Positions 3,779 to 64,000 of a DNA stretch of 64,000 bases are shown here, one piece after another. The stretch comes from an uncultured Nitrospirota bacterium (GTDB taxonomy: Bacteria > Nitrospirota > Nitrospiria > Nitrospirales > UBA8639). Location: assembly GCA_942491685.1 (NCBI GenBank), contig CALOBY010000004.1, positions 425,965-489,964 of the forward strand, in the 5' to 3' direction. A program made the translations under genes and the position numbers. The notes under the pieces are model-generated. The model did not search any database, was not told where the DNA came from, and saw nothing but the letters and a program-made list of their open reading frames with translations. Position 1 is the first letter of the stretch. The number at the start of each line of letters is the position of its first letter.

Positions 3779-3790
3779 GGAGCCGGCTCA

Positions 3791-15781: not shown

Positions 15782-16097
15782 TCTTCTCCAGTTTCTTTTT
15801 TTTCTCTTTCCCTAATTTTTCCTCACCGTTAAAATCTGCTTCCTTTTCCTGCGCGATCCCATGAAAATGTGTGCATACTCGTAGACTGTGAACCCCGTCC
15901 CAATCGAAGAATTGATTGACGCTTGGCGCAAGTCTGTGATAGAAAGCCAGGTCTTTTTTCGGGGCCAAGAGGTCCGGTAATACATGGGTGTCCTTGGGTT
16001 ATTTGAGGTCGTAGGGAAAGGGCATTTTGAAAAGAGGGCATCAGATTTCACTGTTGGCAATTATTACGAACCAAACTTATTCCGTAGGCGAGGGGGA

Positions 16098-16640: not shown

Positions 16641-16697
16641 TCAAAGCCAAACAGTAATCCCAAGAACGAGAAGAACGATAAAGGAGGGGGACGACCC

Positions 16698-18383: not shown

Positions 18384-18439
18384 AATCGCCTTTTCCTGAG
18401 GAAGCTAATAAGTCTGTATTTTGAAAGAAAAGGAATCGT

Positions 18440-19252: not shown

Positions 19253-19274
19253 GAACGTGTAGGACCAGCGAAAT

Positions 19275-20219: not shown

Positions 20220-20256
20220 TTAGTCTTCACCAAAACTACATCAAGGATATTTATTC

Positions 20257-21369: not shown

Positions 21370-21383
21370 TTTATTGGACGGCT

Positions 21384-22253: not shown

Positions 22254-22365
22254 CTAAAATACGGACTGCTAAAAACGTACTAAGCTAGCAAGTGAAATAC
22301 GGCATAGGGTATAAAGGTCTGAAATTGGTTCTTGGGTCTAAAAATGAACGAGTGAAGGGGGCCTA

Positions 22366-24249: not shown

Positions 24250-24255
24250 GGCATT

Positions 24256-24888
24256 ATGAGTGAAGTTGCGTTACTCCAAATAATTGGTCTCTGCGTTGTC
24301 GGAGCCGGAATCCTTATACTCCTGTTTATTAAAGGGATGTTTCTTCGTGTAGTGGGTTTTGTGGCTATGGTGTTAGGGATGTTTAGCTTGATTGCGCTAG
24401 GGGTTCCGCAAATGGCCTCCCTCCCTCCGGCAATTGAAACCTTTGATTTAGCTGAAGTGAAAAGCCCGAGTGACTTAGCGGCGATTGGACAAAAAATATT
24501 TTTTAGTAAAGGGCAGTGTGCCCTCTGTCATTCAATTGGGCCAAGTGAGTCAGCCCGGTGCCCAGATTTGAATGGGATTGGAGCGAAGTTGGCGCCAGAG
24601 TTTATCTATGAAAGTCTGACGCAACCACAGGCCTATATATATTTGGACTTCCGGCATGCAACCAAGCCAGAGGAGTATCCTGCACGTATGCCCCATATCG
24701 ATAAAGATCCTATTGGGCTGACTAAACCTGAAATTTATTCTGTGATTGCATTTCTCCAAAAGATGAGTGGAGAGCCAATTAGTATAAAAGTAGAAGATAT
24801 TATGGAATCTGAGGCCGTGAAGGTTGCGTCAATTGCAGATTCTGCTTCGAAGAATTCTGAGTCCCAAGAGAGTGTCGTAGCTCCGTAA
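24256..24888 (+). CDS. Membrane-anchored monoheme cytochrome c
   Basis: Two N-terminal TM helices, CALCH, RCPDL and ARMP. Confidence 0.88.
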   Translation: MSEVALLQIIGLCVVGAGILILLFIKGMFLRVVGFVAMVLGMFSLIALGVPQMASLPPAIETFDLAEVKSPSDLAAIGQKIFFSKGQCALCHSIGPSESARCPDLNGIGAKLAPEFIYESLTQPQAYIYLDFRHATKPEEYPARMPHIDKDPIGLTKPEIYSVIAFLQKMSGEPISIKVEDIMESEAVKVASIADSASKNSESQESVVAP

Positions 24889-24918
24889 GGCGAAGAACCG
24901 GAGCACAGGAGGAATGAA

Positions 24919-25644
24919 ATGAAAGGTCCAATTGCAAGCGGAGCCATACTTATGGCTGGGATGTTTATCTTCCTGAAGTTTATTCTTCCCATGGTGACGG
25001 CCCCGTTGCCGGCGAGTTTGATTTATCTCTATTTGGCTTTGACCTTAAGTGGAATCATGATCTTTGGAACCATGAGTGCTTCAGGTTTGGAGTCTCTTAT
25101 GGGTCCTGTATTTAGATTTTTGTCTGGGAAGGGCCAGTCTGGAATTGGGCAAATGGCAAGGTTGGCTGTTCTCGTGCTTTTCCCTTTGTTGGTTGGATGG
25201 CAAACCTATACTCGTTTGGCTCCAAGTGATCTTCCGCCTGCGGAAAATCGAACCATTCATCCCGCTCCTCCTGGAGAGTTCGTCGGTTTAGCAAATCCTT
25301 ATCAGAATAATGAGGCAAACGTGAATATGGGGAAAGGGCTCTATGCAGCCTACTGTTCGCCATGTCATGGGGCGAACTATGATGGCAAAGGTCCTGCCGC
25401 GAAAGGATTTAATCCGCCTCCGGCAAATTTCAGTGATCCTGGAACAATAGCTCAACTCCAAGAATCCTATTTATTTTGGAGAATTAAAAAAGGTGGTGTA
25501 GGATTGCCTGTAGAAGGGATGCCTTGGAAATCGGCTATGCCCCGCTGGGAAGTAGAATTGCCAGATGAGTTTATTTGGAAAATTATCATGGGTGAGTATG
25601 ACGGGGCTCATCAATCTCCTCGTACGTGGGAAGAAGAAGAGTAG
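24919..25644 (+). CDS. Membrane-anchored monoheme cytochrome c
   Basis: Three TM helices, CSPCH, PPPANF and SAMPRW. Confidence 0.88.
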   Translation: MKGPIASGAILMAGMFIFLKFILPMVTAPLPASLIYLYLALTLSGIMIFGTMSASGLESLMGPVFRFLSGKGQSGIGQMARLAVLVLFPLLVGWQTYTRLAPSDLPPAENRTIHPAPPGEFVGLANPYQNNEANVNMGKGLYAAYCSPCHGANYDGKGPAAKGFNPPPANFSDPGTIAQLQESYLFWRIKKGGVGLPVEGMPWKSAMPRWEVELPDEFIWKIIMGEYDGAHQSPRTWEEEE

Positions 25645-25692
25645 CGCGTTCCTATTCCTAAATTGAGAATTGTTTTTTGTGGAGAATATGAC

Positions 25693-26532
25693 ATGTTGAA
25701 AAGACTGAGATTCCTGACAATGGTGATCGTGGTGGGAGTCCCCGGAATACTCGGTTTTGCTGTTGGATTTGCCAGTGACCCCCCGCCGGCGGATCAAGCT
25801 GTCGGAAGTGTTTCTGTTCGGTTGTATCAAGTGGAGGGGACCCTCCCCGCCGATGATCCGAATTCAGCACAATGGTCGTCTGTTCCAGACTCAGAATTCC
25901 AATTGGCTCCCCAAGTACATTGGCCAGAGCGTATTCAGGAAGTCACTGTGCAATCCGTTAAAGTCAAGGGGCTTCATGACGGTGAAAATCTTGCCATTTT
26001 ATTGGAATATGAGGATCCCACAGAAGATGCAGCGGATGCAGCGGCCATTGAATTTATGGTGGGAGATAAAATGGCGCACTTCGCTCATGGGCAACCTATG
26101 CTTCAGGTTGAAGGGGGTCCGGTCAATATTTGGTTTTGGAAGAAAGAAAATGGGCAGGCTTTGGATATGAGTGCAAAGGGTTTTAAGACCTTAAAGACGC
26201 AAGAAAAACAAGATGTCAGGGCTACCGGTGTGTGGAATGGCGGTTCTTGGAAAGTCGTCTTTTCTCGTGCGCTGAAAACGGAAGATGAACAAGATGTCCA
26301 AATAGAGCCTGGAGAATGGCGGAGCGTGGCTTTTGCGTTTTGGGATGGGGCACTGGTGAGCGGAGTGGCGAAGGAAAAGGGCAGTCAAAAAGCGGTGTCT
26401 TCCTGGTGGTCAATTCGCGCAGAGCCGAGTGCGGATAACTCGATTTTTGCATGGGTCATTCTTGGCCTTGCACTGGCTGCAGGATTCGAATTGGTGGTGG
26501 TACGGAAATTGAGAAAGGGCCAATCAGCATGA
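25693..26532 (+). CDS. EbdC/DMSO-reductase type II gamma-like heme b-binding protein with C-terminal TM (NxrC-candidate family)
   Basis: VKVKGLHDGENLAILLEYED, DAAAIEF, GQPM, VNIWFWK, WKVVFSRAL and VAFAFWDG resemble the EB_dh domain; signal peptide and C-terminal TM helix present. Confidence 0.75.
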   Translation: MLKRLRFLTMVIVVGVPGILGFAVGFASDPPPADQAVGSVSVRLYQVEGTLPADDPNSAQWSSVPDSEFQLAPQVHWPERIQEVTVQSVKVKGLHDGENLAILLEYEDPTEDAADAAAIEFMVGDKMAHFAHGQPMLQVEGGPVNIWFWKKENGQALDMSAKGFKTLKTQEKQDVRATGVWNGGSWKVVFSRALKTEDEQDVQIEPGEWRSVAFAFWDGALVSGVAKEKGSQKAVSSWWSIRAEPSADNSIFAWVILGLALAAGFELVVVRKLRKGQSA

Positions 26533-27563
26533 AACCGGGGGCCAGGGGAATGATGGGTAGGACCTTATTGAAAGTGTTGGCCATAGGTTTGGCGTCAGGT
26601 TTGTTATTATATGGCTGCGCCGGAGATGAAAAGTCGGCCAAAGGTAAAAAACTTTATAATCATTATTGCAGTCACTGCCATGGCGAGTCGGGACAACAAG
26701 GAGAGGGCTTCAACTGGGATCGTATGCCTGATCCTCGTCCCAAAAATCTTGCCTCCAATGCGGAAATGTCGACTTTTAGTGACAAAGAAATATTTGATAC
26801 CGTATATCGGGACATGCGGGATACTTCAGATCCTAAAGTTTTAGATGATGATAATTATTTTGCAGTGTCCACCATGCCAACATTTAAATACACTCTGTCC
26901 GAGGAAGAGATTTGGAGTGTAGTCGGTTATGTTCGGACGTTACATGGGATGTCGTTGACTTTTGACCTGGCGGGTCGGAAGAAAGAATTAGAAGAAGTGT
27001 TAGCCGCCGCGCAACAAGAAATGGAAGCCGCAAAAGCCATTTATGAGGCTGCCGTAGAAAAAGCTGAAGCTGAACAGGCTGCCTATGAAGAAACTTTGAC
27101 AGATGCTCAACTGGAGGACTATGAGCCCGAAGAGATTACCCTTCCTGAAGAAGAGGTATTCCTCGTGGCTAATGAAAAATATGAAAAGGCTAAAGCGGCA
27201 GTAGATAACTTTTCAAAACGTCCCAAAAAAACAAGAATTGAGCGTCCTGATCTCACTATTTCTGAGGCGGAACGAGCGGTGCAGGTAGAAAAAGGGAAGG
27301 CCCTCTATGGCGATACCTATGGCTGCCACGGGTGTCATAGTCTCAATGACGAAGGGGGATTAGTGGGCCCTGCATTAGATCGTGCTGGCTTTCGATTAAA
27401 TCCGACTTGGGTCTATCAATGGATTCGAAATCCTCAAGCCATGAAAAAACATACACGAATGCCGAACTTAGGTGTATCAGATCCAGATGCGAGAGCCTTA
27501 ACGTATTATCTGGGAACCCTGCGTGCGCCAAAGCCTGAGGGGCCAGTTCCAGACCCTGAATAA
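26529..27563 (+). CDS. Diheme cytochrome c lipoprotein
   Basis: Lipobox LYG-C, CSHCH and CHGCH, acidic coiled linker; ATGA overlap with the upstream gene. Confidence 0.88.
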   Translation: MKPGARGMMGRTLLKVLAIGLASGLLLYGCAGDEKSAKGKKLYNHYCSHCHGESGQQGEGFNWDRMPDPRPKNLASNAEMSTFSDKEIFDTVYRDMRDTSDPKVLDDDNYFAVSTMPTFKYTLSEEEIWSVVGYVRTLHGMSLTFDLAGRKKELEEVLAAAQQEMEAAKAIYEAAVEKAEAEQAAYEETLTDAQLEDYEPEEITLPEEEVFLVANEKYEKAKAAVDNFSKRPKKTRIERPDLTISEAERAVQVEKGKALYGDTYGCHGCHSLNDEGGLVGPALDRAGFRLNPTWVYQWIRNPQAMKKHTRMPNLGVSDPDARALTYYLGTLRAPKPEGPVPDPE

Positions 27564-51052: not shown

Positions 51053-52330
51053 TTAACTGCCCTCAATTCTCACGCCGATGGTTCCGGCGTAGTTGTCGAA
51101 TTGGCTGTGGCCAACCAAGGCCTTAAAGTTCACGAAGGGTTGAATCCCATTAGGCAGGACCAATACGGTGCCCATACCTAAAGTGAAAAAATTTCTATCA
51201 GGTTTATCGTTGTTAAAGCTAAACTTAGTTGGGTTCGCTCGGTTGTCCTCGATAAATTGGACGTCAATAGATCGTTGATCATTCTCAAACTCATGAATAT
51301 AGTCTGCCGTGGCTTGCGGAACCCAGACACCATAGGACGTATTGATTGCCATGGTTCCCTGAAGGCCAATGGTGGTTTGGAGGGATTTGACAGTTTGGTC
51401 GTCAAACTCTAGGCCGATGCCTCCGCCGCCACTTTCTTTATAATCACCAATAGAATTACGGGAATAGTTCACTCCCACCCGTGGACCAACGGTAATATTT
51501 CCGATTATGTGGTCATAGCCTGTCAACGCTTGGATTTGAAATTCATTTCCATCTGAATCGCTACGGGCATTGCCCCCGAATGGAGTGCCGCCAAGTGTCA
51601 CGTATTGGACCTGTCTTTTTACATCGTAGTTATGCCTGGAATACCCTAGACTGACATCAACAAACATGGCTGGTATAGGCATGACGGAACCATAAGCCAG
51701 GAAGCCATAGGAATCGGTGTCGAAATTTCCCCCGCCGTCAAAGTCTCCATCGCGATTTGTATAATTGAAGGCGCCGCCGGCTAAGAACATGTTATTAAAT
51801 CGATAGTCTGCCCCGACCGTTGCACCCAACACCGTTGAATCAAACCCATCCCCAAATGTTGTTCTATCCCTATTCAACGCCTCGAAATTTCCAGAAACAA
51901 AGAGGCCTAAACCGCTCGGCAAATTAATAGTCGCTTGATTCCCAGTCGATTCCCCTTCCAGCCGGTCTAGTCTTCGGTTTTCTACCGTGGCTCCTAATGA
52001 TTGAGCGGATCCCGTTCCCCCGCCAGCAGAACCTCCAGGTCCAGATGGAATATCGTTGCAGAGGGCAGTCAGGTTAGGGCCCAAACCAGGAACGGCACCT
52101 CCACCGGTCAGATTTTGACATTGGAGATCAAGTTGATTAGCTATCGCTTGGTCCAGGGTAGTTGCGGCAAGGGTGGAATTCGGCAAACAAAAAGTGGCAG
52201 CTAACAGGGTGGTTCCTAAGAAACCATATGCCCCGGTAATTTTGATCAAGGGACGGCAAGAGGTTGAGAACCGAGAACCCTTTTCCCTTGAAGAAAAATC
52301 ATCTAGCGGGTTGTCATGCATCGTATCCAT
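51053..52330 (-). CDS. Autotransporter beta-domain outer-membrane protein with very short passenger
   Basis: GGAGG RBS before ATG 52330, long signal peptide, a passenger with two Cys, then a barrel (TVGADYRF, GPRVGVNY, WVPQATADYIHEF, C-terminal GTIGVRI). Confidence 0.82.
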   Translation of the reverse strand: MDTMHDNPLDDFSSREKGSRFSTSCRPLIKITGAYGFLGTTLLAATFCLPNSTLAATTLDQAIANQLDLQCQNLTGGGAVPGLGPNLTALCNDIPSGPGGSAGGGTGSAQSLGATVENRRLDRLEGESTGNQATINLPSGLGLFVSGNFEALNRDRTTFGDGFDSTVLGATVGADYRFNNMFLAGGAFNYTNRDGDFDGGGNFDTDSYGFLAYGSVMPIPAMFVDVSLGYSRHNYDVKRQVQYVTLGGTPFGGNARSDSDGNEFQIQALTGYDHIIGNITVGPRVGVNYSRNSIGDYKESGGGGIGLEFDDQTVKSLQTTIGLQGTMAINTSYGVWVPQATADYIHEFENDQRSIDVQFIEDNRANPTKFSFNNDKPDRNFFTLGMGTVLVLPNGIQPFVNFKALVGHSQFDNYAGTIGVRIEGS

Positions 52331-52514
52331 TTCACACCTCCCCAGAATACGGACCAAATAATAGTAGTAAAATTCCTTACGGTTGAAAAAGACACTGATT
52401 ATAAAGCCTGATAGGCCTGGTTTCAATATAAAAGAGACCACCAGTGTTGATCCGTTAAGTGCTGACTCAGTACACTGTCATGCATAAGTGATTGTAAAGA
52501 TTCACTCAATACCT

Positions 52515-54755
52515 ATGGCTCCCACATTTTCCCCAAAGAATATCTTCGTCGTTCTTTTCCTTGCCATGTTGAATGCTGCCTTACTGTCTTCATGTAGAAC
52601 GAATTCTGGCCAAGATTCTCTCACTGGAGGGGGAAATTCCGATGTAAGGTCTTCCGCAACTGTTGGGGGAGGGGATGATTTTCTGGCTGTGGATTGCCTA
52701 CTGCCAGGCCAAATGCGACGTCTTGGGACGCGTGTGACGTTTTTGACCGCCCGCCGCCCAGCACGAACGACAGCCGAAGACTGCGCCATACGTGGCGGCG
52801 AATACACTCTCCATGATCGGGCTGACTATCAGACTTCACTGAAGTTGTGGCTTGATGCGGCTCAAGAAGGCGATGCGAAAGCTCAATATTACGTAGGTAC
52901 CATTTATGAGAAAGGGCCGAAAGGCATACCGGATTACGCTTTGGCTGCAGTCTGGTATCAAAAAGCTGCCGAACAGGACCATCGACAGGCGGCGATGAAC
53001 TTGGGCCGCCTCTATGAAAAAGGGTTGGGCGTACCCCACAATGCCTCAACAGCCTTTCAATGGTATGGCCGGGCGTCAGGGTTAGGGGAATCAGGTTTAT
53101 CGATGCTGATGAATGTAGAAGCGAGTCAACGCATCCAGCATTTGGAAAAAGCTATGGGAGAGAAGGAAAAAGAGATACTTCGATTGCGAGCACATATTAA
53201 TGAGATAACCCAAGAGCTTAGTCAATTGCGGAATCAACTTCGCCAGCAATCATCAGAGGCCGAAATCGAGCATCAAAAGTTACATACGTTGGAAGAGGAA
53301 TATCAAAAGATTCAGGTTCAGGTACAGGCTGAGCGAGAACAACATGCACGAGATCAAGAGGAACTTCATCAACTCAAAAGTCTTCTGACGAAAAAAACCG
53401 GTTCGGCGGAAAGCATGCGTAATCGAATTCAGGTATTAGAAGTGTCTTTGGCGCAGTCTAACCAGGATGCTAGGCGGGAACAAATTCAAAAGGCCATGCA
53501 AGCGATACAGGTAAAACTCGATCGACAAAAAGTGATTGTGAACGAGCGGAATCAGGAAGTCGAGCGACTGCACCAGCATATTGCCTTATTGGAAAAAGAA
53601 GCGGATGAACGGAACCAGGAATTGAGGCAGACTCCTAGCGTTGATTTAGGATTTGAAGGACCGACGATAGAAATCGTGGATCCCCCGATGCCCCCGACTA
53701 GGGGTATCAATGTGGTCGGGGACGTGCCCATTATTCCAGCTGTGGTTGGCGTCCCACGTCACCTTGCCGGACGGGTCATTGCTCCCGCAGGCTTGCGTAC
53801 TTTCACCATAAACGGGCATGCCGTTCAAGTGGATGATCATGGTATTTTCGCGATGGATTTTCCTCCAATTTCTGAAGCCCATGGGACCCTACCGGTTCAA
53901 ATCATGGCAGTCGATATCCAAAATAAACATGCGGCCAAGAAAATAACCTTGGTGGCTGGTAAAACGGTGGTCGCGGCGCCGGAAATTTCCGACGAAGATA
54001 TGGAAGTTTTTGGGAATTACTATGCGTTGGTCATCGGCAACGATAAATATGAGCATTGGAATCCACTCAGAAATGCAATATCCGATGCTCAGGCAGTGGC
54101 TGAAGTCCTTGGAACCCGTTATGGATTCAAGGTGACCTTTCTGAAAAATGCTACGCGGAGAGATATATTGAAGGGGCTCAACAACTTTAGAAAAACACTT
54201 AAAGAAAATGACAACCTCCTAGTCTACTATGCCGGACATGGGCATTTGGAAAAAGATATCGATCGAGGTTATTGGATTCCTGTGGATGCGGAAATCGATG
54301 ATACCTCTCAATGGATTCTCACTCCCAGTATTACAGATCTTCTGGAGCTGATGTCTGCGAAGCACATACTTGTCGTCGCAGATTCCTGCTTTGCCGGGAA
54401 AATGACCCGGTCGAGTCTGGCGCAACTGCGCCCTGGTCTCTCGGAAGAGAAGCGAATGAAAATGCTCAAGACTGTGGCAAAAAAACGAGTGCGCACGGCG
54501 TTGACTTCTGGAGGGGAACATCCGGTCTTAGATGTTGGAGAAGGAGGACATTCGGTGTTTACAGGAGCCTTCATCACTGTCCTCGGTGAAAATCAAGCCA
54601 TCCTGGAGACCGAACGCCTGTTCCTTGCTATTCGCACCAGAGTGGTGAGTGCTGCGGGAGAATTTAAAATGGAACAAATTCCCACCTATTGGCCTATCCA
54701 ATTTGCTGGCCATGAGAGCCTCGGAGATTTCATCTTCATCCCACAACAAAGCTAG
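52515..54755 (+). CDS. Lipoprotein with Sel1-like repeats, coiled coil and C-terminal caspase-like (peptidase C14) domain
   Basis: Lipobox LSS-C; Sel1 repeats (AQYYVGTIYEKG, AAMNLGRLYEKGLG); YALVIGNDKY; catalytic YYAGHG and VADSCFAG. Confidence 0.88.
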   Translation: MAPTFSPKNIFVVLFLAMLNAALLSSCRTNSGQDSLTGGGNSDVRSSATVGGGDDFLAVDCLLPGQMRRLGTRVTFLTARRPARTTAEDCAIRGGEYTLHDRADYQTSLKLWLDAAQEGDAKAQYYVGTIYEKGPKGIPDYALAAVWYQKAAEQDHRQAAMNLGRLYEKGLGVPHNASTAFQWYGRASGLGESGLSMLMNVEASQRIQHLEKAMGEKEKEILRLRAHINEITQELSQLRNQLRQQSSEAEIEHQKLHTLEEEYQKIQVQVQAEREQHARDQEELHQLKSLLTKKTGSAESMRNRIQVLEVSLAQSNQDARREQIQKAMQAIQVKLDRQKVIVNERNQEVERLHQHIALLEKEADERNQELRQTPSVDLGFEGPTIEIVDPPMPPTRGINVVGDVPIIPAVVGVPRHLAGRVIAPAGLRTFTINGHAVQVDDHGIFAMDFPPISEAHGTLPVQIMAVDIQNKHAAKKITLVAGKTVVAAPEISDEDMEVFGNYYALVIGNDKYEHWNPLRNAISDAQAVAEVLGTRYGFKVTFLKNATRRDILKGLNNFRKTLKENDNLLVYYAGHGHLEKDIDRGYWIPVDAEIDDTSQWILTPSITDLLELMSAKHILVVADSCFAGKMTRSSLAQLRPGLSEEKRMKMLKTVAKKRVRTALTSGGEHPVLDVGEGGHSVFTGAFITVLGENQAILETERLFLAIRTRVVSAAGEFKMEQIPTYWPIQFAGHESLGDFIFIPQQS

Positions 54756-55370: not shown

Positions 55371-55574
55371 TTACTGAAGGGGATAGTTGAGAAAGGTCCG
55401 GCGGGATGAAGTTTTCCACTTTTGCAGGAAGTCAAGGACTTCAAAGAGACGAGTTGAGCCTTGGGCCGCACAATCAATCGCCCCGTTTTTATGTACCCTC
55501 CAGATGCCATCTCCTTCGCGAAGAAGATACATACCTTCTTCACATGATCGACTAATCCCCATCGCCTGGTTCAT
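55371..55574 (-). CDS. 67-aa hypothetical protein
   Basis: AAAGGAGAG RBS; start overlaps the end of the upstream 81-aa gene. It could be degenerate. Confidence 0.5.
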   Translation of the reverse strand: MNQAMGISRSCEEGMYLLREGDGIWRVHKNGAIDCAAQGSTRLFEVLDFLQKWKTSSRRTFLNYPLQ

Positions 55575-55797
55575 CTTGTCTCTCTCCTTTACGAAGTCTG
55601 TGTTGAGACATCGCTAAAACTTTGGTGCAGTCGGCGCAACAGACCTCTTGTTCTTGGACGGAAACCAATCGAATGTAATGCTGACACTGGACACAATACA
55701 GATATCCTTGTCCGTAAAAGCGATAAGGGTAAGTGGGCCATAAACCCTCCCAATTCACCGTTTCGATCGGGATCATGGAAGCTGTAAGTGAAGCCAT
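55552..55797 (-). CDS. 81-aa CxxC...CxxC zinc-finger microprotein
   Basis: AGGAGG RBS; YCVQCQH...VCCADCTKVLA. Confidence 0.7.
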   Translation of the reverse strand: MASLTASMIPIETVNWEGLWPTYPYRFYGQGYLYCVQCQHYIRLVSVQEQEVCCADCTKVLAMSQHRLRKGERQDEPGDGD

Positions 55798-56330: not shown

Positions 56331-57944
56331 TTACCGTTGTGAAGGCAGTCGTCGCGTTGGTGATTTCAATCCAGTGGGTGGTTGAAGTCTTTCTCTTGTC
56401 GCATTTGGCGTCGAAATGGCTGAAGAAGTCGTAATGCCATTCGGGCTCAATTGAATAAACTGATTGCCTGATCGAAGGATCAACCGTTCCTGACCACTAG
56501 TGGCATCGAACAGGATCTCATTGGTCATTCCTGATACTGAGCGATTCTGAAAGAGTGCGTGAAACTGATTGTCTGGTAATGAAGTAGGTGGCAGGTCCTT
56601 TCCGTTCCACATGTTTCCTAAGATCACAGGACGATTGGGGTCGCCATGCTCGAAGGCCACTACCACTTCGTCGTTAATCTCTGGGATCCACATGGCGCCG
56701 GTCCCGTTCCCGGTCGCCAGCTGCGCCACTCGGACCCAGCCCGCGTCCCCTTCCGTCTGGTTGCTGAAGGCCGGGTTTCGCCAGGGGAACCGTACGCGCA
56801 CCCGACCAAATTCATCCACGTGCTTCGACTCTCCTTGTGGCCCAACCACGATTCCAGGCAGGGCGCCGGCAATCTTGGGCCGTGGCGTCCCGGGAGCCGG
56901 GCGAAAAATAATGTTAGCAGGTAGGCAGGTAAATGAATTGTGGTAGCCTTTTGGCGTACTGTGATGTTCCACACCAGTAATCACATATTCCTGATTGAAA
57001 TCCTTGCGTGGGTGTCTGGTCATTGAGAACCGGTAGCCAGCCCGCATGTGCATGTAGGTGGATGTTCCTCCACAAGATTGCCCTTCCGTGACTCGTGCTG
57101 CTAACCGTGTGGTGGCAAACTGCTGTGACTCTTGGGGTGTGTCCACTGCGGCGGGGAACACCCCTTCCACTAAATCACGAAAGAATGGAGATTGAGCCGT
57201 GGCCGTCAAATTGACATTCGGAGTTTTCCAATGGACATCTCCAGCTTGAATCCGGCCGGAATGGAGAGCCAACCCTCGCGAAAAGGACGTGATGGATGGA
57301 CCCTTGGGAGACGCAAACATCAATTGGCCTGGAGATAAAATGGGGAAGGCGGTGTTGGAATCACCTAAGACCACCTTCACATCGGGGCCGGAAGGTTCAA
57401 AATGATAGTGAATCCCTTCGTTCTCTAAAAGCCGGGAAAAGTAGGTGAAATCACTTTCCTGATATTGAATAGAAATTTCTCTAGATGAACCTGAGCCTCC
57501 GAGTCGTATTTCAAAATCCGAAATCCCGGCGTCATTCATCACGATAGTCATAATTTGTACCGCATTCATGTCGGCAAAGGTGCGACTGGTCATGCGATAG
57601 GACAGCCGTTTCAGTGGAGGCACTAAATGTAGGCGATACTGGCCTTGTCGACCTGTTGCACCAGACTGTTCGATGGTCTCGATCATGCCTTCTACCGTCC
57701 GACCTTTGGCCACTGTGAGCTTCAAGACTTGGCCTACAATATTGGCAAAGTTTAAGGCTGGATGTGGAACAGATACTTCAAGATCAAACCTAAACGGTTG
57801 TGAAATATGCTCTGTGCCGGAAAATTGCACAACGCGAGCTTGAGATAGAGCGGCCAAGTCAGAATTTGTGGCGGCCAGCACATTTAAGGGCAGGCCAAGG
57901 ACGAGGGCAGTCAGTCTCAAGATCCAGAATATTTTCGTTTTCAT
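56331..57944 (-). CDS. vgrG: VgrG-like spike hub protein (gp27-like plus gp5 OB-fold) with N-terminal signal peptide and truncated C-terminus
   Basis: GTEHISQPFRFDL, QYQESDFTYFSRLLENEGIHYHF, DEFGRVRVRFPW, WVRVAQ, PEINDEVVVAFEHGDPNRPVILG and NEILFD..SGQERL. N-terminus MKTKIFWILRLTALVLGLPLNVLA|A. Confidence 0.9.
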   Translation of the reverse strand: MKTKIFWILRLTALVLGLPLNVLAATNSDLAALSQARVVQFSGTEHISQPFRFDLEVSVPHPALNFANIVGQVLKLTVAKGRTVEGMIETIEQSGATGRQGQYRLHLVPPLKRLSYRMTSRTFADMNAVQIMTIVMNDAGISDFEIRLGGSGSSREISIQYQESDFTYFSRLLENEGIHYHFEPSGPDVKVVLGDSNTAFPILSPGQLMFASPKGPSITSFSRGLALHSGRIQAGDVHWKTPNVNLTATAQSPFFRDLVEGVFPAAVDTPQESQQFATTRLAARVTEGQSCGGTSTYMHMRAGYRFSMTRHPRKDFNQEYVITGVEHHSTPKGYHNSFTCLPANIIFRPAPGTPRPKIAGALPGIVVGPQGESKHVDEFGRVRVRFPWRNPAFSNQTEGDAGWVRVAQLATGNGTGAMWIPEINDEVVVAFEHGDPNRPVILGNMWNGKDLPPTSLPDNQFHALFQNRSVSGMTNEILFDATSGQERLILRSGNQFIQLSPNGITTSSAISTPNATRERLQPPTGLKSPTRRLPSQR

Positions 57945-58010
57945 CACAAGATTCCTTCCTAGCAAATAAAGAGAGCCTTACAGAAAATTCTAAAGCCACA
58001 ACATGGCAAC

Positions 58011-58973
58011 TTACTTATCCCAGAGGTCACACACGAACCTGGTGCTGTCGATATAAATGCCACGCTTCCCGCGAAAGGCTTTGCCGACTTTTCCGGAAGG
58101 GCAGAAAAAGTTACCTGAGGGGGAGCTACTAAAATTTCCAATTACTTTGCATCTGCCCCCGGTACAACTTACGCTTTCCGAATAAATTGTCGCTTTTTGG
58201 CTTTGATTCCATTGACTACAGAATAAAAGAATTCCATTGACGAACTGGCCGGAAAAACCCTTGACTCCCTGAACGACCTTGCCATTTTCACAACGACCAA
58301 CTTGAGCAATTCCCCCACTACCCCCAACCGGTCCTCTGGTGAATTCATTTCCCAAAGCCCCGGTTTGAGAGTTTACTTGTTGACAAATGATTCCCAGAGC
58401 ATCCAACCACATTCCGCTTTTGTAAATTCCCCCAACCATGACGGAGCCACTGCCACAATCGAGATTATACGAATAGTTACCTCCTCCCCCTCCAAAAAGG
58501 GGGGTGGAGTATTCCGTCGAGGCGGTCCTTTGGGTGGAGGAAAGCGTTTTTAGGCGTTGAATGGTGAAAAGCGAAAGAGTGCCTCTGGAGCGAATACCAC
58601 TATAGGTGCCGATCGCTTCCAACCGCTTTCCATCAGGAATCAACAAGGCAAGGTGGTAGGTGTCAGGTTGGTCTCCCTCAGCCGAAATCGCCAAAGGAGC
58701 GGTGAGCGATTCTTCATGGGTCGCCGACTGCGCTTCCAAGAGCAACGAATCCACCGCCTGTCCTTCGCTCGGGGTGACCCGCAGCCATTTGTCAGCCGCA
58801 CCCACGGCATAGGTACCGGCGTCGAGCACAATGTTGCTGCCTTCGGCATTCAGAAAATGCACCGGTTGATCCAAAGTGATGCTGGTGTCGGCTAGGGCTG
58901 TGGGAATGTCAGCCAGAAACCACGCCAGGAACGCGCTGGCCAGAGACAAGTAAAAGGGAAGTGTCTGTCGCAT
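58011..58973 (-). CDS. Secreted protein: shared N-terminal domain plus Cys-containing beta-prism (jacalin/VMO-I-like) domain
   Basis: Signal peptide, LDQPVHFL...GTYSGIRSRG, then three repeats of G.GG...C..G.V..G...G..(LD/VN/ID)...C. Confidence 0.8.
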   Translation of the reverse strand: MRQTLPFYLSLASAFLAWFLADIPTALADTSITLDQPVHFLNAEGSNIVLDAGTYAVGAADKWLRVTPSEGQAVDSLLLEAQSATHEESLTAPLAISAEGDQPDTYHLALLIPDGKRLEAIGTYSGIRSRGTLSLFTIQRLKTLSSTQRTASTEYSTPLFGGGGGNYSYNLDCGSGSVMVGGIYKSGMWLDALGIICQQVNSQTGALGNEFTRGPVGGSGGIAQVGRCENGKVVQGVKGFSGQFVNGILLFCSQWNQSQKATIYSESVSCTGGRCKVIGNFSSSPSGNFFCPSGKVGKAFRGKRGIYIDSTRFVCDLWDK

Positions 58974-59022
58974 GACATCTCCTTTGTAAAAAGAATGGAT
59001 GAGATTATTTTTGAATTGTTGG

Positions 59023-59946
59023 TTATTTCATGTTCTCAATAATCTTTCTCTGCGCATCCGAGTTTTTCTTCATGATCTGAGACATGGCTTGCTGTGCTTG
59101 AGAAAATTTGGACATGGCCGTTTGAAGTTGGAAATTCAAGTCCTTCGAGGCATTTTCTAAGGTCTGTAATTCCTGTTTCAACCGCTGCGTCAACTGTTGC
59201 CATTGGGTTTTTCGTTGTTGGTTGCGTTCCTGTGCCAACTTTTTTTGTGTGTCTTGTAAGTGTTGACGAATTTTTTGTTTTTTGGTGTTCCCGTCTTGGA
59301 TCTTTGCTCGATAGAACTGTAAATCTTTTTGAGTGGCTAAATATGATTGCCGTAAAACTTCAACCATGAGGGCATTGGCATTGAGCGAATGAGGAAGCTG
59401 ATTCTTCGATTGAGTTGGCTGTTTGCCTTGTCCCACCAGTTTATTCCATTCCTTTTGTAAGGAGGATTTCGGCGCCTTCTTTGTCAGTGATTTAGCGAAT
59501 GATTTCACCTGTTTCCTAAAGGGCGGCTTGAAGGTTTTTCTTAGATTGTGAAGGCTCATCCCACGCGTTTGAATGCCGCTATACGAGCCCATCGCCTCTA
59601 GTCCGTTATGGTCTGGAATCGCCAAAGCCAGATAGACTCCTTCGTCGGGAATCGGAATGGCCATTCCTATTGGCAACTCGACTTCGTCAGGAAACGGGGT
59701 AGGCTGCGCTTGTAGAGAAATAGATGTTTGGCCATCCTGAGCCTGGAGCCGTAACTCGTCTCCCTGTCTTTCTAGTTCGTACGTTCCGGGTGGAACCACG
59801 ACATCATTGCCTTCTGGAGTCAGGAAGTGAACCGCCTGGTCCAGCATGATCGCCATCGAAGATTCTGATGCCAGCGCCGGTAATGTTCCAAGAAGAAATG
59901 TTACGAATAAGAGTCCAAGTAATTTGATCGAGTATTTCTTCGTCAT
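59023..59946 (-). CDS. Secreted protein: shared N-terminal domain plus coiled-coil C-terminus
   Basis: GAGG RBS at ATG 59946, signal peptide, LDQAVHFL...GSYSGIQTRG, Q/K-rich coiled coil ending ...MSQIMKKNSDAQRKIIENMK. Confidence 0.8.
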   Translation of the reverse strand: MTKKYSIKLLGLLFVTFLLGTLPALASESSMAIMLDQAVHFLTPEGNDVVVPPGTYELERQGDELRLQAQDGQTSISLQAQPTPFPDEVELPIGMAIPIPDEGVYLALAIPDHNGLEAMGSYSGIQTRGMSLHNLRKTFKPPFRKQVKSFAKSLTKKAPKSSLQKEWNKLVGQGKQPTQSKNQLPHSLNANALMVEVLRQSYLATQKDLQFYRAKIQDGNTKKQKIRQHLQDTQKKLAQERNQQRKTQWQQLTQRLKQELQTLENASKDLNFQLQTAMSKFSQAQQAMSQIMKKNSDAQRKIIENMK

Positions 59947-59969
59947 GTTCTTGCCTCGCGATTTGCTGG

Positions 59970-61301
59970 TTAATATCCTATGGGGGTTGGTATTTGTCCG
60001 CCTGCGCAGGATCCGCCTATGACAGGACCTACCGGCACGAACGGGGGTGCAAAGGAGGGTACGGGCCCAGAACCCATGACGTTCATCAACTGGCATCCAC
60101 TGAGACAGGTTGCATGTCGTCCACCGATATCCGTGGCGAACCCCTGGACGGCAATCTTGGCTTCTTTGTCGCTCGATGGGACGCCTAATCGAGATAAAAC
60201 CTTTTTAGCTAAAAGGGGTGGCGTCATCGCTTTCGTTCCAGCGGAGGGCATCGACGAAAGAGGAAATGGAACGTTTGGCATGGGAGGAGCCTGTGCTCCA
60301 GGAAAGGCTGTAAATGCCGGATACATGGGAAGGCCAGGGATGATAACGTTCTTCGCCCAAAGGTTCCACGTTTCTTTGAAAGCCTGGTCCCAACCATCAG
60401 CTACGGATTTAGACGCGCCTGCCGCCTTCAACGCTTTTGATATTTTGCCCTGAAACGAGTATCGGCTTTTCAGGACACCGGGTGTTCCGATGGCCGATAC
60501 CGCCATGACCTTACAATAGTTTCTATCGATATAGGCCTGACTGAGCCAGGTTGCTGCCTCCGCTCGGGCTGCAGCAATGGCCGTTTGACTCCACAGAGTC
60601 CATTTCCCGGATCCGCCGGTCACGGTTTGTCTGGCTTTCTGAATTCCACTCTTCACATTTGATACGACCTGGCTGGTTTTTTTCTCAACGGCTTTCTTGA
60701 CTTCAAGCGCGGCTTTTCTGGAATTCTGAAGACCTTGTTTCGCGGATGATGCCGCCCTTTGGGTATGTTGTTGTGCTTGTTTTGTCGCTTTTTGTGCGGA
60801 ACTTTTGGCTTGTGAAGCGGCCTTCTTTGCCGTGGACTTGGCTTTCTTATGGGCTTGTTTAGCCTTTTTCTTCACGTTGTTCACGGCATTGTTAAAAAAT
60901 CCCCTCTGTCTAATGCCACTAAAGGTTCCTGTTGATTCCAAACTTTCACCGTTTGGCAGTAACAAAATGATGTGGTGAAGATCCTGACTATCGTCATCGG
61001 TACCTGAGACTGACAAGGCCAACGGCTCTGGTAGTTCTAGCTCATGTGTGCCTTTGTTGGCCTCAATGAGGACGGCGTCATGACGTTCACCGGACATCAG
61101 GCGAATCCATTCTTCAGCCGGCTCAATGCCATACGTACCGGCCTTGACTACTAGATCACTCCCATCGGGTGCCAAAAAATGTACAGGGATGTCCAGTTTA
61201 ATCGTGGTAAGAGGATCCCGTAATGAGGCTGCTGATTTTCCCGTGGTGCTGAACAAAGCGAACGTTACCAAAATAGTAGAAAGAAATTTGAATTTTTTCA
61301 T
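59970..61301 (-). CDS. Secreted protein: shared N-terminal domain, basic helical linker and Pro-rich unknown C-terminal domain
   Basis: GAGG RBS at ATG 61301, signal peptide, LDIPVHFL...GTFSGIRQRG, K/A/Q linker, C-terminal PGLPMYPAF...GPVPSFAPPFVPVGPVIGG. Confidence 0.8.
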   Translation of the reverse strand: MKKFKFLSTILVTFALFSTTGKSAASLRDPLTTIKLDIPVHFLAPDGSDLVVKAGTYGIEPAEEWIRLMSGERHDAVLIEANKGTHELELPEPLALSVSGTDDDSQDLHHIILLLPNGESLESTGTFSGIRQRGFFNNAVNNVKKKAKQAHKKAKSTAKKAASQAKSSAQKATKQAQQHTQRAASSAKQGLQNSRKAALEVKKAVEKKTSQVVSNVKSGIQKARQTVTGGSGKWTLWSQTAIAAARAEAATWLSQAYIDRNYCKVMAVSAIGTPGVLKSRYSFQGKISKALKAAGASKSVADGWDQAFKETWNLWAKNVIIPGLPMYPAFTAFPGAQAPPMPNVPFPLSSMPSAGTKAMTPPLLAKKVLSRLGVPSSDKEAKIAVQGFATDIGGRHATCLSGCQLMNVMGSGPVPSFAPPFVPVGPVIGGSCAGGQIPTPIGY

Positions 61302-63365
61302 GGTTGTGACCTCTTGGCTCATACGGACATAAGGATAAGGTGTGTTTCAGCGCACCGCAGCTTCTGCGAGCTGCACGACACTTTGGTTGTAACGCTCCAA
61401 GGCTTTCCGAGTATCCTCCGTATGGGTGCTGGCTAATATGACGATTTGTTGCTTAGAGGGTAAATACCGCAAAAGAGCCGACAATGGTCCCGCATGCCGT
61501 TGAATGGCCGTATACGTTCGGTTGTTTTTCAAGGCATCTTTGGCCTCATCGATGACCTTGCCGTACGCATAATGGGCTCCGGCTTTCACGCTGCCGACAA
61601 TGATATTGTTGATAGCCAATTTCCAAATGACGTCGGGTGTGATTTTTGCCAGGCCGGACACAATCCCCCCGGCTTCAGGGACGAGACCAGCCACACTCTG
61701 GACGACCGTGCCCACGGTTTGTTCCCCAAAATCCAACACTTCGACAGCAGAGCGGATGAGGAAACTCCCCCCACCTGGCAGTTCACTATCCAGATACTTT
61801 TTCCCCACGACACGAAGGATTTCCATGCCGATATCGATATAGAGGGATTCCGTCCAAGGAGTATTAGGATCCAGCGCGGTTCTGACGGCATTGAGGGCCT
61901 GCCCCCGCTGAGAGGGGTTATTCAACGTTTTAGTGAGGTGTTCAATTTGACTGGCGGCCGCATAGAGATCGCGTGGGTTCAATAACTGGTCTGCCAGGAC
62001 CGCGTTCTTAATGTCAAGGATATCCCCCAACCCTGGAACCACATCACCGAGCAAGGCTTTTGTATCATCTTGCGTGAATCCTCGACTGATAATAGGGCTC
62101 TTGGAAAAGAAACGATCGTCGGAAAAATACTGTTGGGGATTAATGCCTCTTGACTGAATTTTTGCTTGGGCAATTTCTTGAGGCGTCAGGGAAAGGACAG
62201 CTGCCATTAGATCGCCAAGCTGCTTGCTTAAACTGCCAAACAAAATGGGGGCCACTTGATTGTCAAAGATACGTTTCCCTTGGGTGATGGTGGTCTGCTG
62301 GATCTGACCAGATTTTCTCTGAAAGGCCTGGAGATGTGGACGGACAAACTGCATCAGACATCGCCCCCCGGGGCCCTTTTGTGCGATTTTTTCAATGGAC
62401 CGAAAAGCCATGGCGATGACCTGCGGGCCTTGTGGTGCTGAACGAGACGGGTTCCGAATGAACTGCAGTTGTTCCGACATGATGTCGCTAAAACTCTGCT
62501 CCCATTGCTGCATGATGTCCTGGAAGAGTTGGTTCGCAAATTCTGGAGGATTGCTCGTGAATTGTTGAACCATCTGTGGAATGTTGGCCGAGGGTTTTCC
62601 CGATGACTGGGCCAGGCAGGCAAATAAGGGTTCCAAACTGAGTTTTCTAACGGCTTCTAGCGTTTGGATTTCACTTTGGAGTGTGGCGACCAGGGGATTA
62701 TTTTTGATTTGATTCATCCCTGCCTGGGCACTGCTTTGGACATTTCCTGCCACCTGCTTGGCGGTATTCTCCACTTGACGCTTAGCGTGAAGGGCCGCGT
62801 TTCTGGCTGTTTGAAATCCAGCTTTTGCTGTTGAAACTGCCTGCTGCGTTCCTTTTCGTACTTGTTTCTGTGCGTTTCGTGCAGCTTTTTGTGCTTGAGA
62901 GGCCGCCTTCTGTGTTTCTTGCTGAGCGTGTTTCGTTGCCTTTTGTGCGGTGCTTTGGGCCTGAGAAACAGTTTTCCTGGCTGTAGATCGGGCTTTCTTA
63001 TAGGCTTGATTCGTCTGTTTTTTAACGTTATTGATGGCCTGGTCAAAGAACCCCCGAGGTCGGATCCCACTGTAAGTCCCCGTTGATTCTAAGCTCTTAC
63101 CGTTTGGGAGTAAGAGGATGAGGTGATGGCGGTCTCGGCTATCATCTTGAGTATCTGCCACTGACAAGACGAGTGCATCTGGGAGCTCTAACTCATGTTT
63201 GCCGGCCTTAGTTTCAATGAGGAAGGATTCATGACGAATCCCTGGTACCAACCGAAGCCAATCTTCTGCAGCTTCAACCGTATAGGTTCCTGTTGGGATG
63301 ACCTGAGAACTGCCATCTGCCCCAATAAAATGGATCGGTTTGTCAATAGTGATTGACGTCAGTGG
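60600..63365 (-). repeat. Paralogous duplicated segment (shared domain plus K/A/Q linker) in genes 59970-61301 and 61347-63455
   Basis: The two N-terminal domains are 66/106 identical by hand alignment. The linkers align (FF.NA.NNVKK...QA.KKA.STA.K..SQA.S.AQKATK.AQQ.TQ.AAS), and DNA similarity is visible between ~60780-61070 and ~62930-63230. Confidence 0.85.
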
Positions 63366-63455
63366 ATCGGTGATTGTTGCCAAACATACGCCCGATAACA
63401 TCAAGGCTGAGACCAGAGAACACAAGAATGTATAAATCCACTGAGATCGCTTCAT
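61347..63455 (-). CDS. Secreted protein: shared N-terminal domain, basic helical linker and large helical C-terminal domain
   Basis: AGAGGAG RBS, signal peptide, IDKPIHFI...GTYSGIRPRG, K/A/Q linker, then about 470 aa of mostly helical sequence. Confidence 0.82.
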   Translation of the reverse strand: MKRSQWIYTFLCSLVSALMLSGVCLATITDPLTSITIDKPIHFIGADGSSQVIPTGTYTVEAAEDWLRLVPGIRHESFLIETKAGKHELELPDALVLSVADTQDDSRDRHHLILLLPNGKSLESTGTYSGIRPRGFFDQAINNVKKQTNQAYKKARSTARKTVSQAQSTAQKATKHAQQETQKAASQAQKAARNAQKQVRKGTQQAVSTAKAGFQTARNAALHAKRQVENTAKQVAGNVQSSAQAGMNQIKNNPLVATLQSEIQTLEAVRKLSLEPLFACLAQSSGKPSANIPQMVQQFTSNPPEFANQLFQDIMQQWEQSFSDIMSEQLQFIRNPSRSAPQGPQVIAMAFRSIEKIAQKGPGGRCLMQFVRPHLQAFQRKSGQIQQTTITQGKRIFDNQVAPILFGSLSKQLGDLMAAVLSLTPQEIAQAKIQSRGINPQQYFSDDRFFSKSPIISRGFTQDDTKALLGDVVPGLGDILDIKNAVLADQLLNPRDLYAAASQIEHLTKTLNNPSQRGQALNAVRTALDPNTPWTESLYIDIGMEILRVVGKKYLDSELPGGGSFLIRSAVEVLDFGEQTVGTVVQSVAGLVPEAGGIVSGLAKITPDVIWKLAINNIIVGSVKAGAHYAYGKVIDEAKDALKNNRTYTAIQRHAGPLSALLRYLPSKQQIVILASTHTEDTRKALERYNQSVVQLAEAAVR

Positions 63456-63500
63456 GATAGTCCGACTCCTCTTTTTTGGATTTAGGAAAAAGGGGGATTC

Positions 63501-64000
63501 TTAAGGGACAAATACACTTGTGCTTCCAGAAACCACCTTTCCTCCAGACACTGAACTGGTCACATGCGCCACCGATTTGGTGCCATCATTGAGTTTAATT
63601 TGCGGAGCTTTGAGCTTTAGAGTTCCTGCCCCTTCTGCGGCGACATCTTTTCCTCCTTTAAAGGAAAGGTCCTTTCCACTTTCTAACTCAAAGTCATCTC
63701 CTGCGGTAATCACCAAATCTTGGGCGGATGTAATGGTGAGGTCTTTAGCAGTATTGATTGTCAGAGTTGGAGCCTGAATGGTGGTCGAATTTGCAGAAAC
63801 TTGGACAACGGATCTGAGGAGATTTACCTGGGACTGTAGAATCTGAACCTGTTTTTTGAGGGGCATGACTTGTTTGTTCTGGGCTTGTAGGGCACCGACC
63901 TGTTGTTTTAATGATGAAATTTGTTGGTAAAGGTATTCTGGGGTAATTTGCAATTTCTGGACGTTGCTCGGTGGTTGTTGCATTGGCGGTTTTTGTGGCT
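63501..64000 (-). CDS. Coiled-coil plus gp5/gpV-like beta-helix spike protein (5' end probably outside window)
   Basis: The frame stays open to the window edge (..PQKPP-MQQPP). Heptad coiled coil, ~8-residue repeats (TINTAKDL/TITSAQDL/VITAGDDF/ELESGKDL/SFKGGKDV), then IKLNDG..VAHV...SGS..VF. Confidence 0.75.
   Translation of the reverse strand, partial: PQKPPMQQPPSNVQKLQITPEYLYQQISSLKQQVGALQAQNKQVMPLKKQVQILQSQVNLLRSVVQVSANSTTIQAPTLTINTAKDLTITSAQDLVITAGDDFELESGKDLSFKGGKDVAAEGAGTLKLKAPQIKLNDGTKSVAHVTSSVSGGKVVSGSTSVFVP

Follow-up and report, generated by a model that had tools for sequence, protein, structure and literature searches.

Export signals on a VgrG hub, a split needle, a tandem tube protein and a polymorphic cargo family in an uncultured Nitrospirota bacterium

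How could the spike of a phage tail come to be built from proteins that each carry a signal for export? The question is raised by an operon at the end of a 64,000-nucleotide stretch of DNA (the window) from an uncultured Nitrospirota bacterium of the lineage UBA8639 (GenBank assembly GCA_942491685.1, contig CALOBY010000004.1, positions 425,965 to 489,964 of the forward strand), which encodes a VgrG-like hub, separate needle proteins, a tube protein and four cargo-like proteins. To our knowledge, all known machines made of VgrG, Hcp or gp19 proteins, namely phage tails, tailocins, type VI secretion systems (T6SS) and extracellular contractile injection systems (eCIS), are built in the cytoplasm from subunits that lack signals. 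Known tail-derived machines rely on a contracting sheath or, once released, on ejection in the manner of a phage. We lean towards reading the operon as one for a sheathless module of phage tail-tip origin, whose subunits would be exported singly, assembled outside the cytoplasm and loaded with polymorphic effectors.

Hub, needle and tube proteins with export signals

On the minus strand, six genes of one orientation occupy positions 56331 to 64000, separated by gaps of 66, 49, 23, 45 and 45 nt, as the initial annotation had described. The last of them in the direction of transcription is vgrG (56331-57944), whose 537-aa product, a hub or spike base, matches the Pfam families Phage_GPD (E 1.2e-60) and Phage_base_V (2.2e-19), which bears out its naming as a VgrG. 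Four cargo-like genes lie upstream of it, and the sixth gene (63501-64000) is the 3' part, 166 of 194 codons, of a gene for a beta-helix 'needle' protein with a coiled coil. The operon had been thought to run in from beyond the window edge, and it does. The missing part was read from a 135.9-kb contig (ENA ERZ25072490, here L001) retrieved through exactly the same 702-aa cargo-like protein; L001 is identical to the window across the operon, with six differing positions that all lie farther downstream, and a third contig with the same neighbours has been reported. L001 supplies the first 28 codons of the edge gene, including the signal peptide MKKISLPLTIVIVLSQISLAIA with its cleavage site before Ala, and the completed gene (L001 9371-9955) encodes 194 aa made up of signal peptide, coiled coil and beta-helix, with a DUF2345 match (1.6e-5) under the Pfam cutoff. 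Two more genes of the operon follow upstream. The first, 24 nt from the 194-aa gene, encodes a tandem tube protein of 390 aa with two Phage_T4_gp19 domains (L001 8174-9346; PF06841, 1.7e-21); the second, a further 83 nt upstream of the tandem gp19 gene, encodes a 213-aa protein with signal peptide, coiled coil and Gp5_trimer_C domain (1.9e-15). The operon therefore comprises eight genes, three of which lie partly or wholly past base 64000.

By homology, the spike is split over separate polypeptides, as had been proposed from the window. After its signal, the 537-aa VgrG consists of a gp27-like domain and a gp5 oligonucleotide/oligosaccharide-binding fold (OB-fold), without a long C-terminal beta-helix. 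It aligns to residues 9-506 of a 698-aa member of its clade (P0151) with 53% identity, and residues 96-213 of the 213-aa protein align to residues 558-698 of the same protein, its very C-terminus (E 1e-12). The 194- and 213-aa proteins are paralogues of each other (BLASTP E 5e-7). The clade accordingly falls into two subgroups, one of short VgrGs (about 537-540 aa) and one of long VgrGs (634-698 aa) that include DUF2345.

An AlphaFold2 model of the tandem gp19 protein, built with 25 homologues, has predicted local distance difference test (pLDDT) values above 90 across the two domains and below 50 across the signal. Its top PDB matches are the duplicated tube proteins of sheathless tails, which form trimeric, pseudo-hexameric rings: in Foldseek, the T5 tail tip (7qg9_G, 1.6e-9), 8hrg (2.9e-9) and the P74-26 tube (8ed0, 2.5e-7), with the DT57C tube and T5 pb6 also among the best. 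Each half on its own matches the tube subunits of eCIS (Pvc1, Afp1, CIS), T4 and Hcp at template-modelling (TM) scores of 0.65-0.78. From this model, a tandem gp19 ring may reasonably be predicted to be stacked on the VgrG trimer. The initial annotation had seen no tube gene in the window, but the cluster does include one: the tandem gp19 gene stands just past the window edge and Hcp genes with signal peptides occur in related loci.

Export signals were called with a custom heuristic that requires a positive n-region, an uncharged h-region and an AXA site. By this measure, all eight operon proteins bear an exported-type N-terminus, seven of them Sec-like and one of the twin-arginine translocation (Tat) type, which extends to the whole operon what had been claimed for the five genes complete in the window. 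The signal peptide of VgrG, MKTKIFWILRLTALVLGLPLNVLA, is encoded at window positions 57870-57944 and precedes an Ala. The tandem gp19 protein begins with MQLLPSHNLQTQNNSHSRRDFLTKTALLAGGILTF; in its N-terminus, SRRDFLTK is followed by TALLAGGILTF and then by VFA before the Ala of the mature start, which fits the Tat pattern [ST]-R-R-x-F-L-K with h-region and AXA site. The heuristic is unspecific, flagging 27 of the 54 other open reading frames (ORFs) of the window, many or most of which encode membrane proteins. A chance estimate derived from it was dropped for this reason and replaced by a comparison of conservation between clade and outgroup, on which the case for signals beyond chance rests.

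That comparison is favoured by a sharp break in the VgrG homologue search. The clade of the window's VgrG comprises 88 clusters of at least 41% identity (at least 443 bits), assigned to Nitrospirota or Nitrospirales where named, and the next matches have at most 35% identity (at most 265 bits). A signal is present in 78 of the 88 clade clusters versus 2 of the 32 next, more distant VgrGs of the canonical cytoplasmic type; in the 78, an uncharged hydrophobic segment precedes the conserved mature start A-[TG]-N-P-D-L-x-A-L...F-[ST]-G-x-E. Eight of the ten clade members without a signal are fragments that begin inside the mature protein, one (P0165) starts within the signal itself, and the last (P0166) has a weaker signal below the threshold. 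As to the tube protein, 46 of 70 tandem-gp19 homologues, some with as little as 31% identity, retain the motif [ST]-R-R-x-F-[LF]; a few of the 70 have a Sec-type signal instead, and about a dozen, of roughly 290 aa, have none. The Hcp proteins of four sister loci (L003, L004, L006 and L007) bear signal peptides as well. Because the signals are conserved in the VgrG clade, the tandem gp19 proteins and the sister-locus Hcps, mis-called starts cannot explain the pattern, so far as sequence comparison can tell.

Beyond the Nitrospirota, a survey of GTDB species genomes with one peptide pattern from a 12-sequence alignment, and for that reason taxonomically incomplete, returned tandem gp19 at 54 loci in Nitrospirota, Chloroflexota, Verrucomicrobiota, Methylomirabilota, Acidobacteriota, Actinomycetes, Myxococcota and others. 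Among the 59 copies scored, 17 have a Tat-type signal, about 6 are Sec-like and 36 are signal-less. The signal-less copies, which lie among the loci L011 and L014-L058, come from Actinomycetes, Acidobacteriota, Methylomirabilota, Myxococcota and Nitrosospira sp. Nl5, the last of which (L040) is a cultured strain with a tandem gp19 gene. The one genomic context of a signal-less copy that was viewed (P0062) contained unrelated neighbours and no other tail genes. A further copy with a Sec-type signal (L010 1668-2699) lies on a contig labelled 'uncultured archaeon LFW-280_1_1'.

The cargo family and the surroundings of the operon

The four cargo-like proteins share one N-terminal domain of about 105 aa (the N-domain), which follows the signal peptide and has 24 invariant columns in their alignment, with the motifs D-x-P-V-H-F, G-T-Y and L-L-L-P-x-G-x-x-L-E-A-x-G-T-Y-S-G-I-R-x-R-G. 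The shared domain was thus correctly recognised in the initial annotation; the companion claim that the C-termini are all unrelated stands only in part, since the four diverge past the N-domain but the 443- and 702-aa proteins still have in common a K/Q/A-rich stretch that reaches to about residue 260. An AlphaFold2 model of the N-domain of the 702-aa protein (pLDDT 87) is all-beta, with ten strands. A fold assignment of this model against the PDB was tried and rejected, with nothing below E 0.001 (best E 0.018, TM 0.32). Nor does the domain have a Pfam model, the precomputed Pfam field being empty in all listed homologues.

A profile search of 1.84 billion representatives returned 1091 clusters with the N-domain, 894 of them at E 1e-10 or better. 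The proteins are 131-888 aa long, the domain begins near residue 33, and a hydrophobic N-terminus precedes it in 130 of the 146 best matches among the 1091 clusters. In 86 longer members, the C-termini match 32 Pfam families, none of which occurs in more than four proteins. They include Lipase_3 (4), CARDB (3), Peptidase_M23, Matrixin, Tachylectin and Lcl_C, and further WSC, PAN, EGF, lysyl oxidase, eCIS_core and DUF6345. Judged by these sequences, the family is a polymorphic effector architecture, and the interchangeable cargoes envisaged from four genes reappear on a much larger scale. The N-domain ends in an almost invariant hinge, G-[ST]-Y-S-G-[IV]-x-x-R-[GA], whose Arg is present in 190 of 197 N-domains; the 30 residues that follow are basic (median net charge +3) and in some cases include runs of poly-Lys.

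The cargoes of the operon itself are less readily assigned. The 320-aa protein (58011-58973, minus strand; N-domain 58590-58889) has a C-terminus with weak similarity to jacalin/griffithsin-type lectins in a PDB sequence search (E 0.0025-0.02). This similarity is the sole hint of cargo function in the operon, and the lectin proposed earlier goes no further than that. The 307-aa protein, which starts with MTKKYS (59023-59946, minus strand; N-domain 59557-59868), has a Q/K-rich helical C-terminus and no significant Pfam family. In the 443-aa protein (59970-61301, minus strand; N-domain 60897-61226), the N-domain is followed by a basic K/Q/A-rich helix region and then by a Pro/Gly-rich C-terminus; in the 702-aa protein (61347-63455, minus strand; N-domain 63051-63377), a basic helix region leads to a C-terminal domain of 440 aa. 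The C-termini of the 307-, 443- and 702-aa proteins have no Pfam match, and those of the 702- and 443-aa proteins have no match in a PDB sequence search.

Two observations concern the integrity of cargo genes. In another assembly of the same strain (Logan ERR9669565, L002), the operon departs from that of L001 at one position, where a C6 homopolymer is one C shorter (window position about 58504, L001 14952); this cuts the 320-aa gene to 199 aa, and the difference reflects either a sequencing error in one assembly, a phase-variable gene or a pseudogene. Upstream of the needle genes, L001 5900-7200 holds short fragments only, among them an 87-aa ORF with a weak DUF928 match and Pro-rich ORFs. 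At the same place in another genome (L066 4376-5548) stands an intact 390-aa gene combining N-domain and DUF928, and the L001 fragments look like a decayed cargo gene.

The pairing of cargo-like genes with an exported-type VgrG, first seen in the window, recurs elsewhere, as N-domain genes adjoin a signal-bearing VgrG in seven loci. They adjoin signal-bearing VgrG, beta-helix and/or tandem gp19 genes in L001 and the window, L004, L005 (Nitrospirae SZUA-312), L006, L059 (GCA_030679795.1), L061, L062 and L066 (GCA_050178505.1). A close relative among these is L062, a circular genome of 4.01 Mb (ENA ERZ25072999, ctg322005_23x_c) whose VgrG is 76% identical to that of the window. Here the tandem gp19 gene is deleted (3500-4300), leaving a C-terminal remnant ORF, MFCETIQLPQFPEGG..., at 3655-3810, and the 194-aa beta-helix gene is shortened to 123 aa, with the other operon genes intact. 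L066 also has no tandem gp19 gene. Loci with a long VgrG add genes for signal-peptide Hcps and for a cytoplasmic CxxCxxCC protein. The latter (PF03692) stands beside signal-peptide Hcp or VgrG genes at L004 13206-13907, L006 17404-18123, L007 18269-18979 and L061 10279-10995, and is the only conserved member of the long-VgrG loci without a signal. In addition, signal-peptide proteins of about 845 aa are conserved at L006 5083-7632 and L007 11834-14365, and may be further effectors; their mature start, WKLETHYWLAKE, presumably recalls the N-termini of zinc phospholipases C.

On the other side of vgrG, a Sel1-repeat/Peptidase_C14 (caspase-like) protein with a lipoprotein-like N-terminus is encoded on the plus strand (52488-54755; Peptidase_C14 1e-27, Sel1 8.5e-14). 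A C14 or related gene adjoins the cluster in L001, L004, L006, L007, L059 and L062, and through this synteny the C14 protein is a candidate processing protease for the hinge Arg. Divergent from the C14 gene lies a gene for a small autotransporter with a beta-barrel (51053-52441, minus strand; Pfam Autotransporter). The divergent pair stands beside the cluster in two genomic contexts, window 51053-54755 and L059 5352-9432, a recurrence suggesting that both genes are part of the system; for the autotransporter, any tie to the tail-like cluster would be speculative.

The search for the missing parts of a contractile machine covered the window from 6.7 to 64 kb and 10 kb upstream through Pfam tables of called genes, with the first 6 kb scanned separately; the latter hold an Mla system, an Omp85 protein and similar genes. 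In these roughly 74 kb, no sheath, baseplate, membrane complex, ClpV, PAAR, tape measure or capsid gene was found among housekeeping genes. The initial annotation was accordingly right that sheath and baseplate are missing, its statement on the tube being the part that failed, and no canonical T6SS or eCIS lies in the 10 kb upstream. In 120 neighbour genes of ten exported-type loci (Pfam and PHROG), the families found include gp19 (12), Hcp (6), Phage_GPD (3), Peptidase_C14 (3) and CxxCxxCC (3). No sheath or wedge family was among those found at least twice, the pooled scans giving the 25 commonest families, so that a sheath gene in a single related locus could escape.

A few observations describe the immediate surroundings. 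A scan for promoters and terminators intended to set the ends of the operon was discarded, as its counts did not exceed those of shuffled sequences; the one useful feature that it gave, upstream of the cluster, was a strong bidirectional hairpin (L001 5167-5204). Downstream of vgrG, two small minus-strand ORFs at window 55371-55797 encode an 81-aa Cys-rich, zinc-ribbon-like protein and a 67-aa protein, both without a signal, and recur at the same place in L062. Farther away, window positions 15984-27563 hold a dense respiratory cluster with two cytochrome bd-like oxidase subunits I, Rieske/cytochrome b and several c-type cytochromes, a content in keeping with the window's origin from Nitrospirota.

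Proposed mechanism and rival explanations

What could such a set of proteins do? For a module of this kind, we infer assembly, docking, cleavage, outer-membrane passage and target along the following lines. The subunits would cross the inner membrane separately by Sec, and the tube protein would do so folded, via Tat. VgrG would form a trimeric hub of the gp27/gp5 type, and the 213- and 194-aa proteins, with their coiled coils and gp5-type triple beta-helices, would supply the needle that is fused to VgrG in its longer relatives. The tandem gp19 protein would add a trimeric, pseudo-hexameric ring on the hub, in the manner of the duplicated tube proteins of T5. Hub, needles and, where present, ring and Hcp would assemble outside the cytoplasm into a sheathless spike, and the shared beta N-domain may dock the polymorphic proteins onto this spike or its hub. 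The neighbouring caspase-like C14 lipoprotein might then cut at the invariant Arg, releasing or activating the C-terminal domains, and processing at the hinge could also keep an enzyme cargo inactive during its passage through the producer's periplasm. The site of action of the loaded complex would finally be extracellular, either neighbouring cells or the matrix.

A wider form of this proposal is more tentative, and we regard it as possible rather than probable. Nitrospirota would possess an unrecognised kind of tail-derived apparatus for secretion or delivery. Its hub, needle and tube ring, joined in sister loci by Hcp, would leave the cytoplasm through Sec or Tat and form polymers without a sheath in the periplasm or at the surface. 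Its effectors, a family of about 1000 clusters recognisable by the new N-domain, would be freed by an Arg-specific caspase-like protease, and the Tat-signal tandem tubes of Chloroflexota, Verrucomicrobiota and other phyla would be simpler relatives.

Several points weigh against the exported module as we propose it. The export signals were called with the custom heuristic and not with SignalP or TatP, and the docking of the N-domain on VgrG as well as the cleavage by C14 are suggested by synteny and a conserved motif. The operon itself contains no Hcp (no T6SS_HCP match in its eight genes), and the locus revealed neither an outer-membrane conduit nor an energy source nor immunity genes; the 23-49 nt gaps between the cargo genes hold no small ORFs and hence no adjacent immunity genes. 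As the tandem gp19 gene is deleted in L062 and absent from L066, it is not essential to the short-VgrG version. One further locus (L065) has an orphan VgrG with a signal, and outside the Nitrospirota, tandem gp19 genes with a Tat signal stand apart from any VgrG, Hcp or N-domain gene; the parts need not always act together. Finally, a canonical T6SS or eCIS could be encoded elsewhere in the genome, beyond the roughly 74 kb scanned.

The chief rival, which we consider rather unlikely, shares the export of the proteins and differs in their purpose. It holds that they are building blocks or decorations of a matrix or appendage that keeps Nitrospirota microcolonies together, and that no toxin is delivered. 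Many C-termini of the N-domain family are indeed binding modules (jacalin-like, Tachylectin, CARDB, WSC, PAN, EGF and Lcl_C), the operon has no immunity genes, and Tat-signal tandem gp19 occurs alone in several phyla. In the secretome of granular sludge, moreover, Phage_T4_gp19 and T6SS_HCP proteins are abundant extracellularly and have been read as tube-forming components of the matrix (PMC12019908). These secretome proteins may or may not be relatives of those of the operon. The same cargo family also contains domains of an antibacterial type (Lipase_3 in four proteins, Peptidase_M23, Matrixin and eCIS_core), and a VgrG with an OB-fold and a needle has the design of a membrane-puncturing device. 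The surface-assembled adhesin or weapon suggested in the initial annotation would be conjectural in either sense; no outer-membrane route, target or immunity gene for it was identified.

Three other explanations are each unlikely, and far more so than a structural role. One of them makes the operon a VgrG-effector island auxiliary to a canonical, cytoplasmic T6SS or eCIS at some other place in the genome, with signals that are mis-called or functionless. T6SS genomes commonly contain VgrG islands followed by effector genes, the public annotation of these proteins is 'type VI secretion system tip protein VgrG', and the canonical system could lie in the part of the genome outside the scan. Such an island would nevertheless leave the pattern of signals hard to understand. 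Hydrophobic N-termini with AXA sites stand directly before the conserved mature A-[TG]-N-P-D-L..AL in 78 of 88 clade VgrGs and are missing in 30 of the 32 more distant ones, the Tat motif of the tube protein is a textbook one and conserved, and signals are found on all eight proteins and on the related Hcps. Neither the roughly 74 kb here nor, among the families found at least twice, the flanks of the ten related loci yielded a sheath or baseplate, and we hold such an island to be very improbable. We attach just as little weight to a periplasmic decoy or defence, in which exported tail-tip proteins would disturb incoming phage tails or the T6SS spikes of competitors. The signals do imply a periplasmic location, and the homology is to the very parts that phages use to cross the envelope, but a decoy leaves the polymorphic family of enzyme and lectin cargoes and the conserved hinge motif unexplained; it is also without precedent, and no match to known defence systems was seen, though none was sought. 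Least credible of all is a decaying, functionless tailocin or prophage remnant, which we rejected: the deleted tandem gp19 and truncated 194-aa gene of L062 and the 1-nt homopolymer difference that truncates the 320-aa gene in L002 would suit it, but frames are intact across some 88 VgrG and 1091 N-domain clusters, several unrelated families have gained export signals and kept them, several genomes share the gene order, no tRNA, integrase, capsid or sheath gene was found at or near the island, tandem-gp19 relatives are absent from IMG/VR (pattern scan) and from GenBank phages (tblastn), and the phage matches to the VgrG all have less than 30% identity.

Should the exported, effector-carrying module hold up, its interest would extend beyond a single operon. 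Two families become testable: the tandem tube proteins with Tat signals in several phyla, and an N-terminal cargo domain without a Pfam model in about 1000 clusters. The hosts are nitrite oxidisers and related bacteria, of importance to nitrogen cycling and to biofilms in wastewater, and little is known in them of antagonism or adhesion between cells. The annotation 'T6SS tip protein VgrG' would wrongly imply a T6SS in these genomes.

Relation to known tail-derived and toxin systems

Is the architecture already known under another name? The initial annotation did not recognise it as a named system, and in the literature searched, no description of clusters with signal-bearing VgrG, Hcp or tube proteins was found. 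The T6SS offers the most obvious comparison. Like its TssI spike, the VgrG described here combines Phage_GPD with a gp5 OB-fold, effector-like genes cluster beside vgrG, and related loci contain genes of the Hcp family. Unlike in the T6SS, each component bears a signal for Sec or Tat, the needle has genes of its own, and no TssB/C, TssE/F/G/K, TssJ/L/M, ClpV or PAAR is found nearby. The putative effectors use their own, new N-domain instead of MIX, FIX, PAAR or Rhs markers or adaptor genes.

With the eCIS (Afp, PVC, AlgoCIS and Streptomyces CIS), the operon shares a tube domain of the gp19/Afp1/Pvc1 type and a VgrG-like spike, and one member of the N-domain family has an eCIS_core domain. In contrast, no sheath, gp25/Baseplate_J wedge, tape measure, terminator or AAA ATPase was found in the window, its upstream flank or, among families found at least twice, the related loci. 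An eCIS assembles in the cytoplasm and is freed by lysis, whereas the subunits described here would be exported singly.

Polymorphic toxin systems (PMC3482391) resemble the cargo family in their conserved N-terminal domain of a trafficking type, in a hinge that may be a processing site, in their variable C-termini and in the arrangement of several paralogues in tandem. The N-domain falls outside the trafficking domains described for them, no immunity genes follow the cargo genes, and the survey of these systems (Zhang et al. 2012, PMC3482391) does not describe a signal-bearing VgrG.

For the tandem gp19 protein, the closest structural likeness is to phage tail tips. In the T5 tail tip (pb6 and p140 on the pb3 hub) and the P74-26 tube, two tube domains are fused and there is no sheath, as in the operon. 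There, trimeric pseudo-hexameric rings are stacked on a gp27-like hub, an arrangement that the operon's proteins may share. The differences lie in the sequences, which show no similarity by tblastn, in the Tat signal of the tandem gp19 protein, and in the loci, which contain no tape measure, distal tail protein, capsid or phage context. The gp5-gp27 device of T4 has the same gp27-like hub, gp5 OB-fold and C-terminal triple beta-helix (Gp5_trimer_C, 1.9e-15), but in the operon the beta-helix stands on separate polypeptides, after a signal peptide and a coiled coil, and a lysozyme domain is absent.

Set beside all of these, a conserved clade that sends hub, needle and tube ring, Hcp and also cargo through Sec or Tat points to another mode of assembly and probably to another principle of operation. 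As far as the sequences indicate, the biogenesis would be new in kind, and the module, with its putative function, may for now be filed most cautiously as a radical variant of the tail-derived delivery systems.

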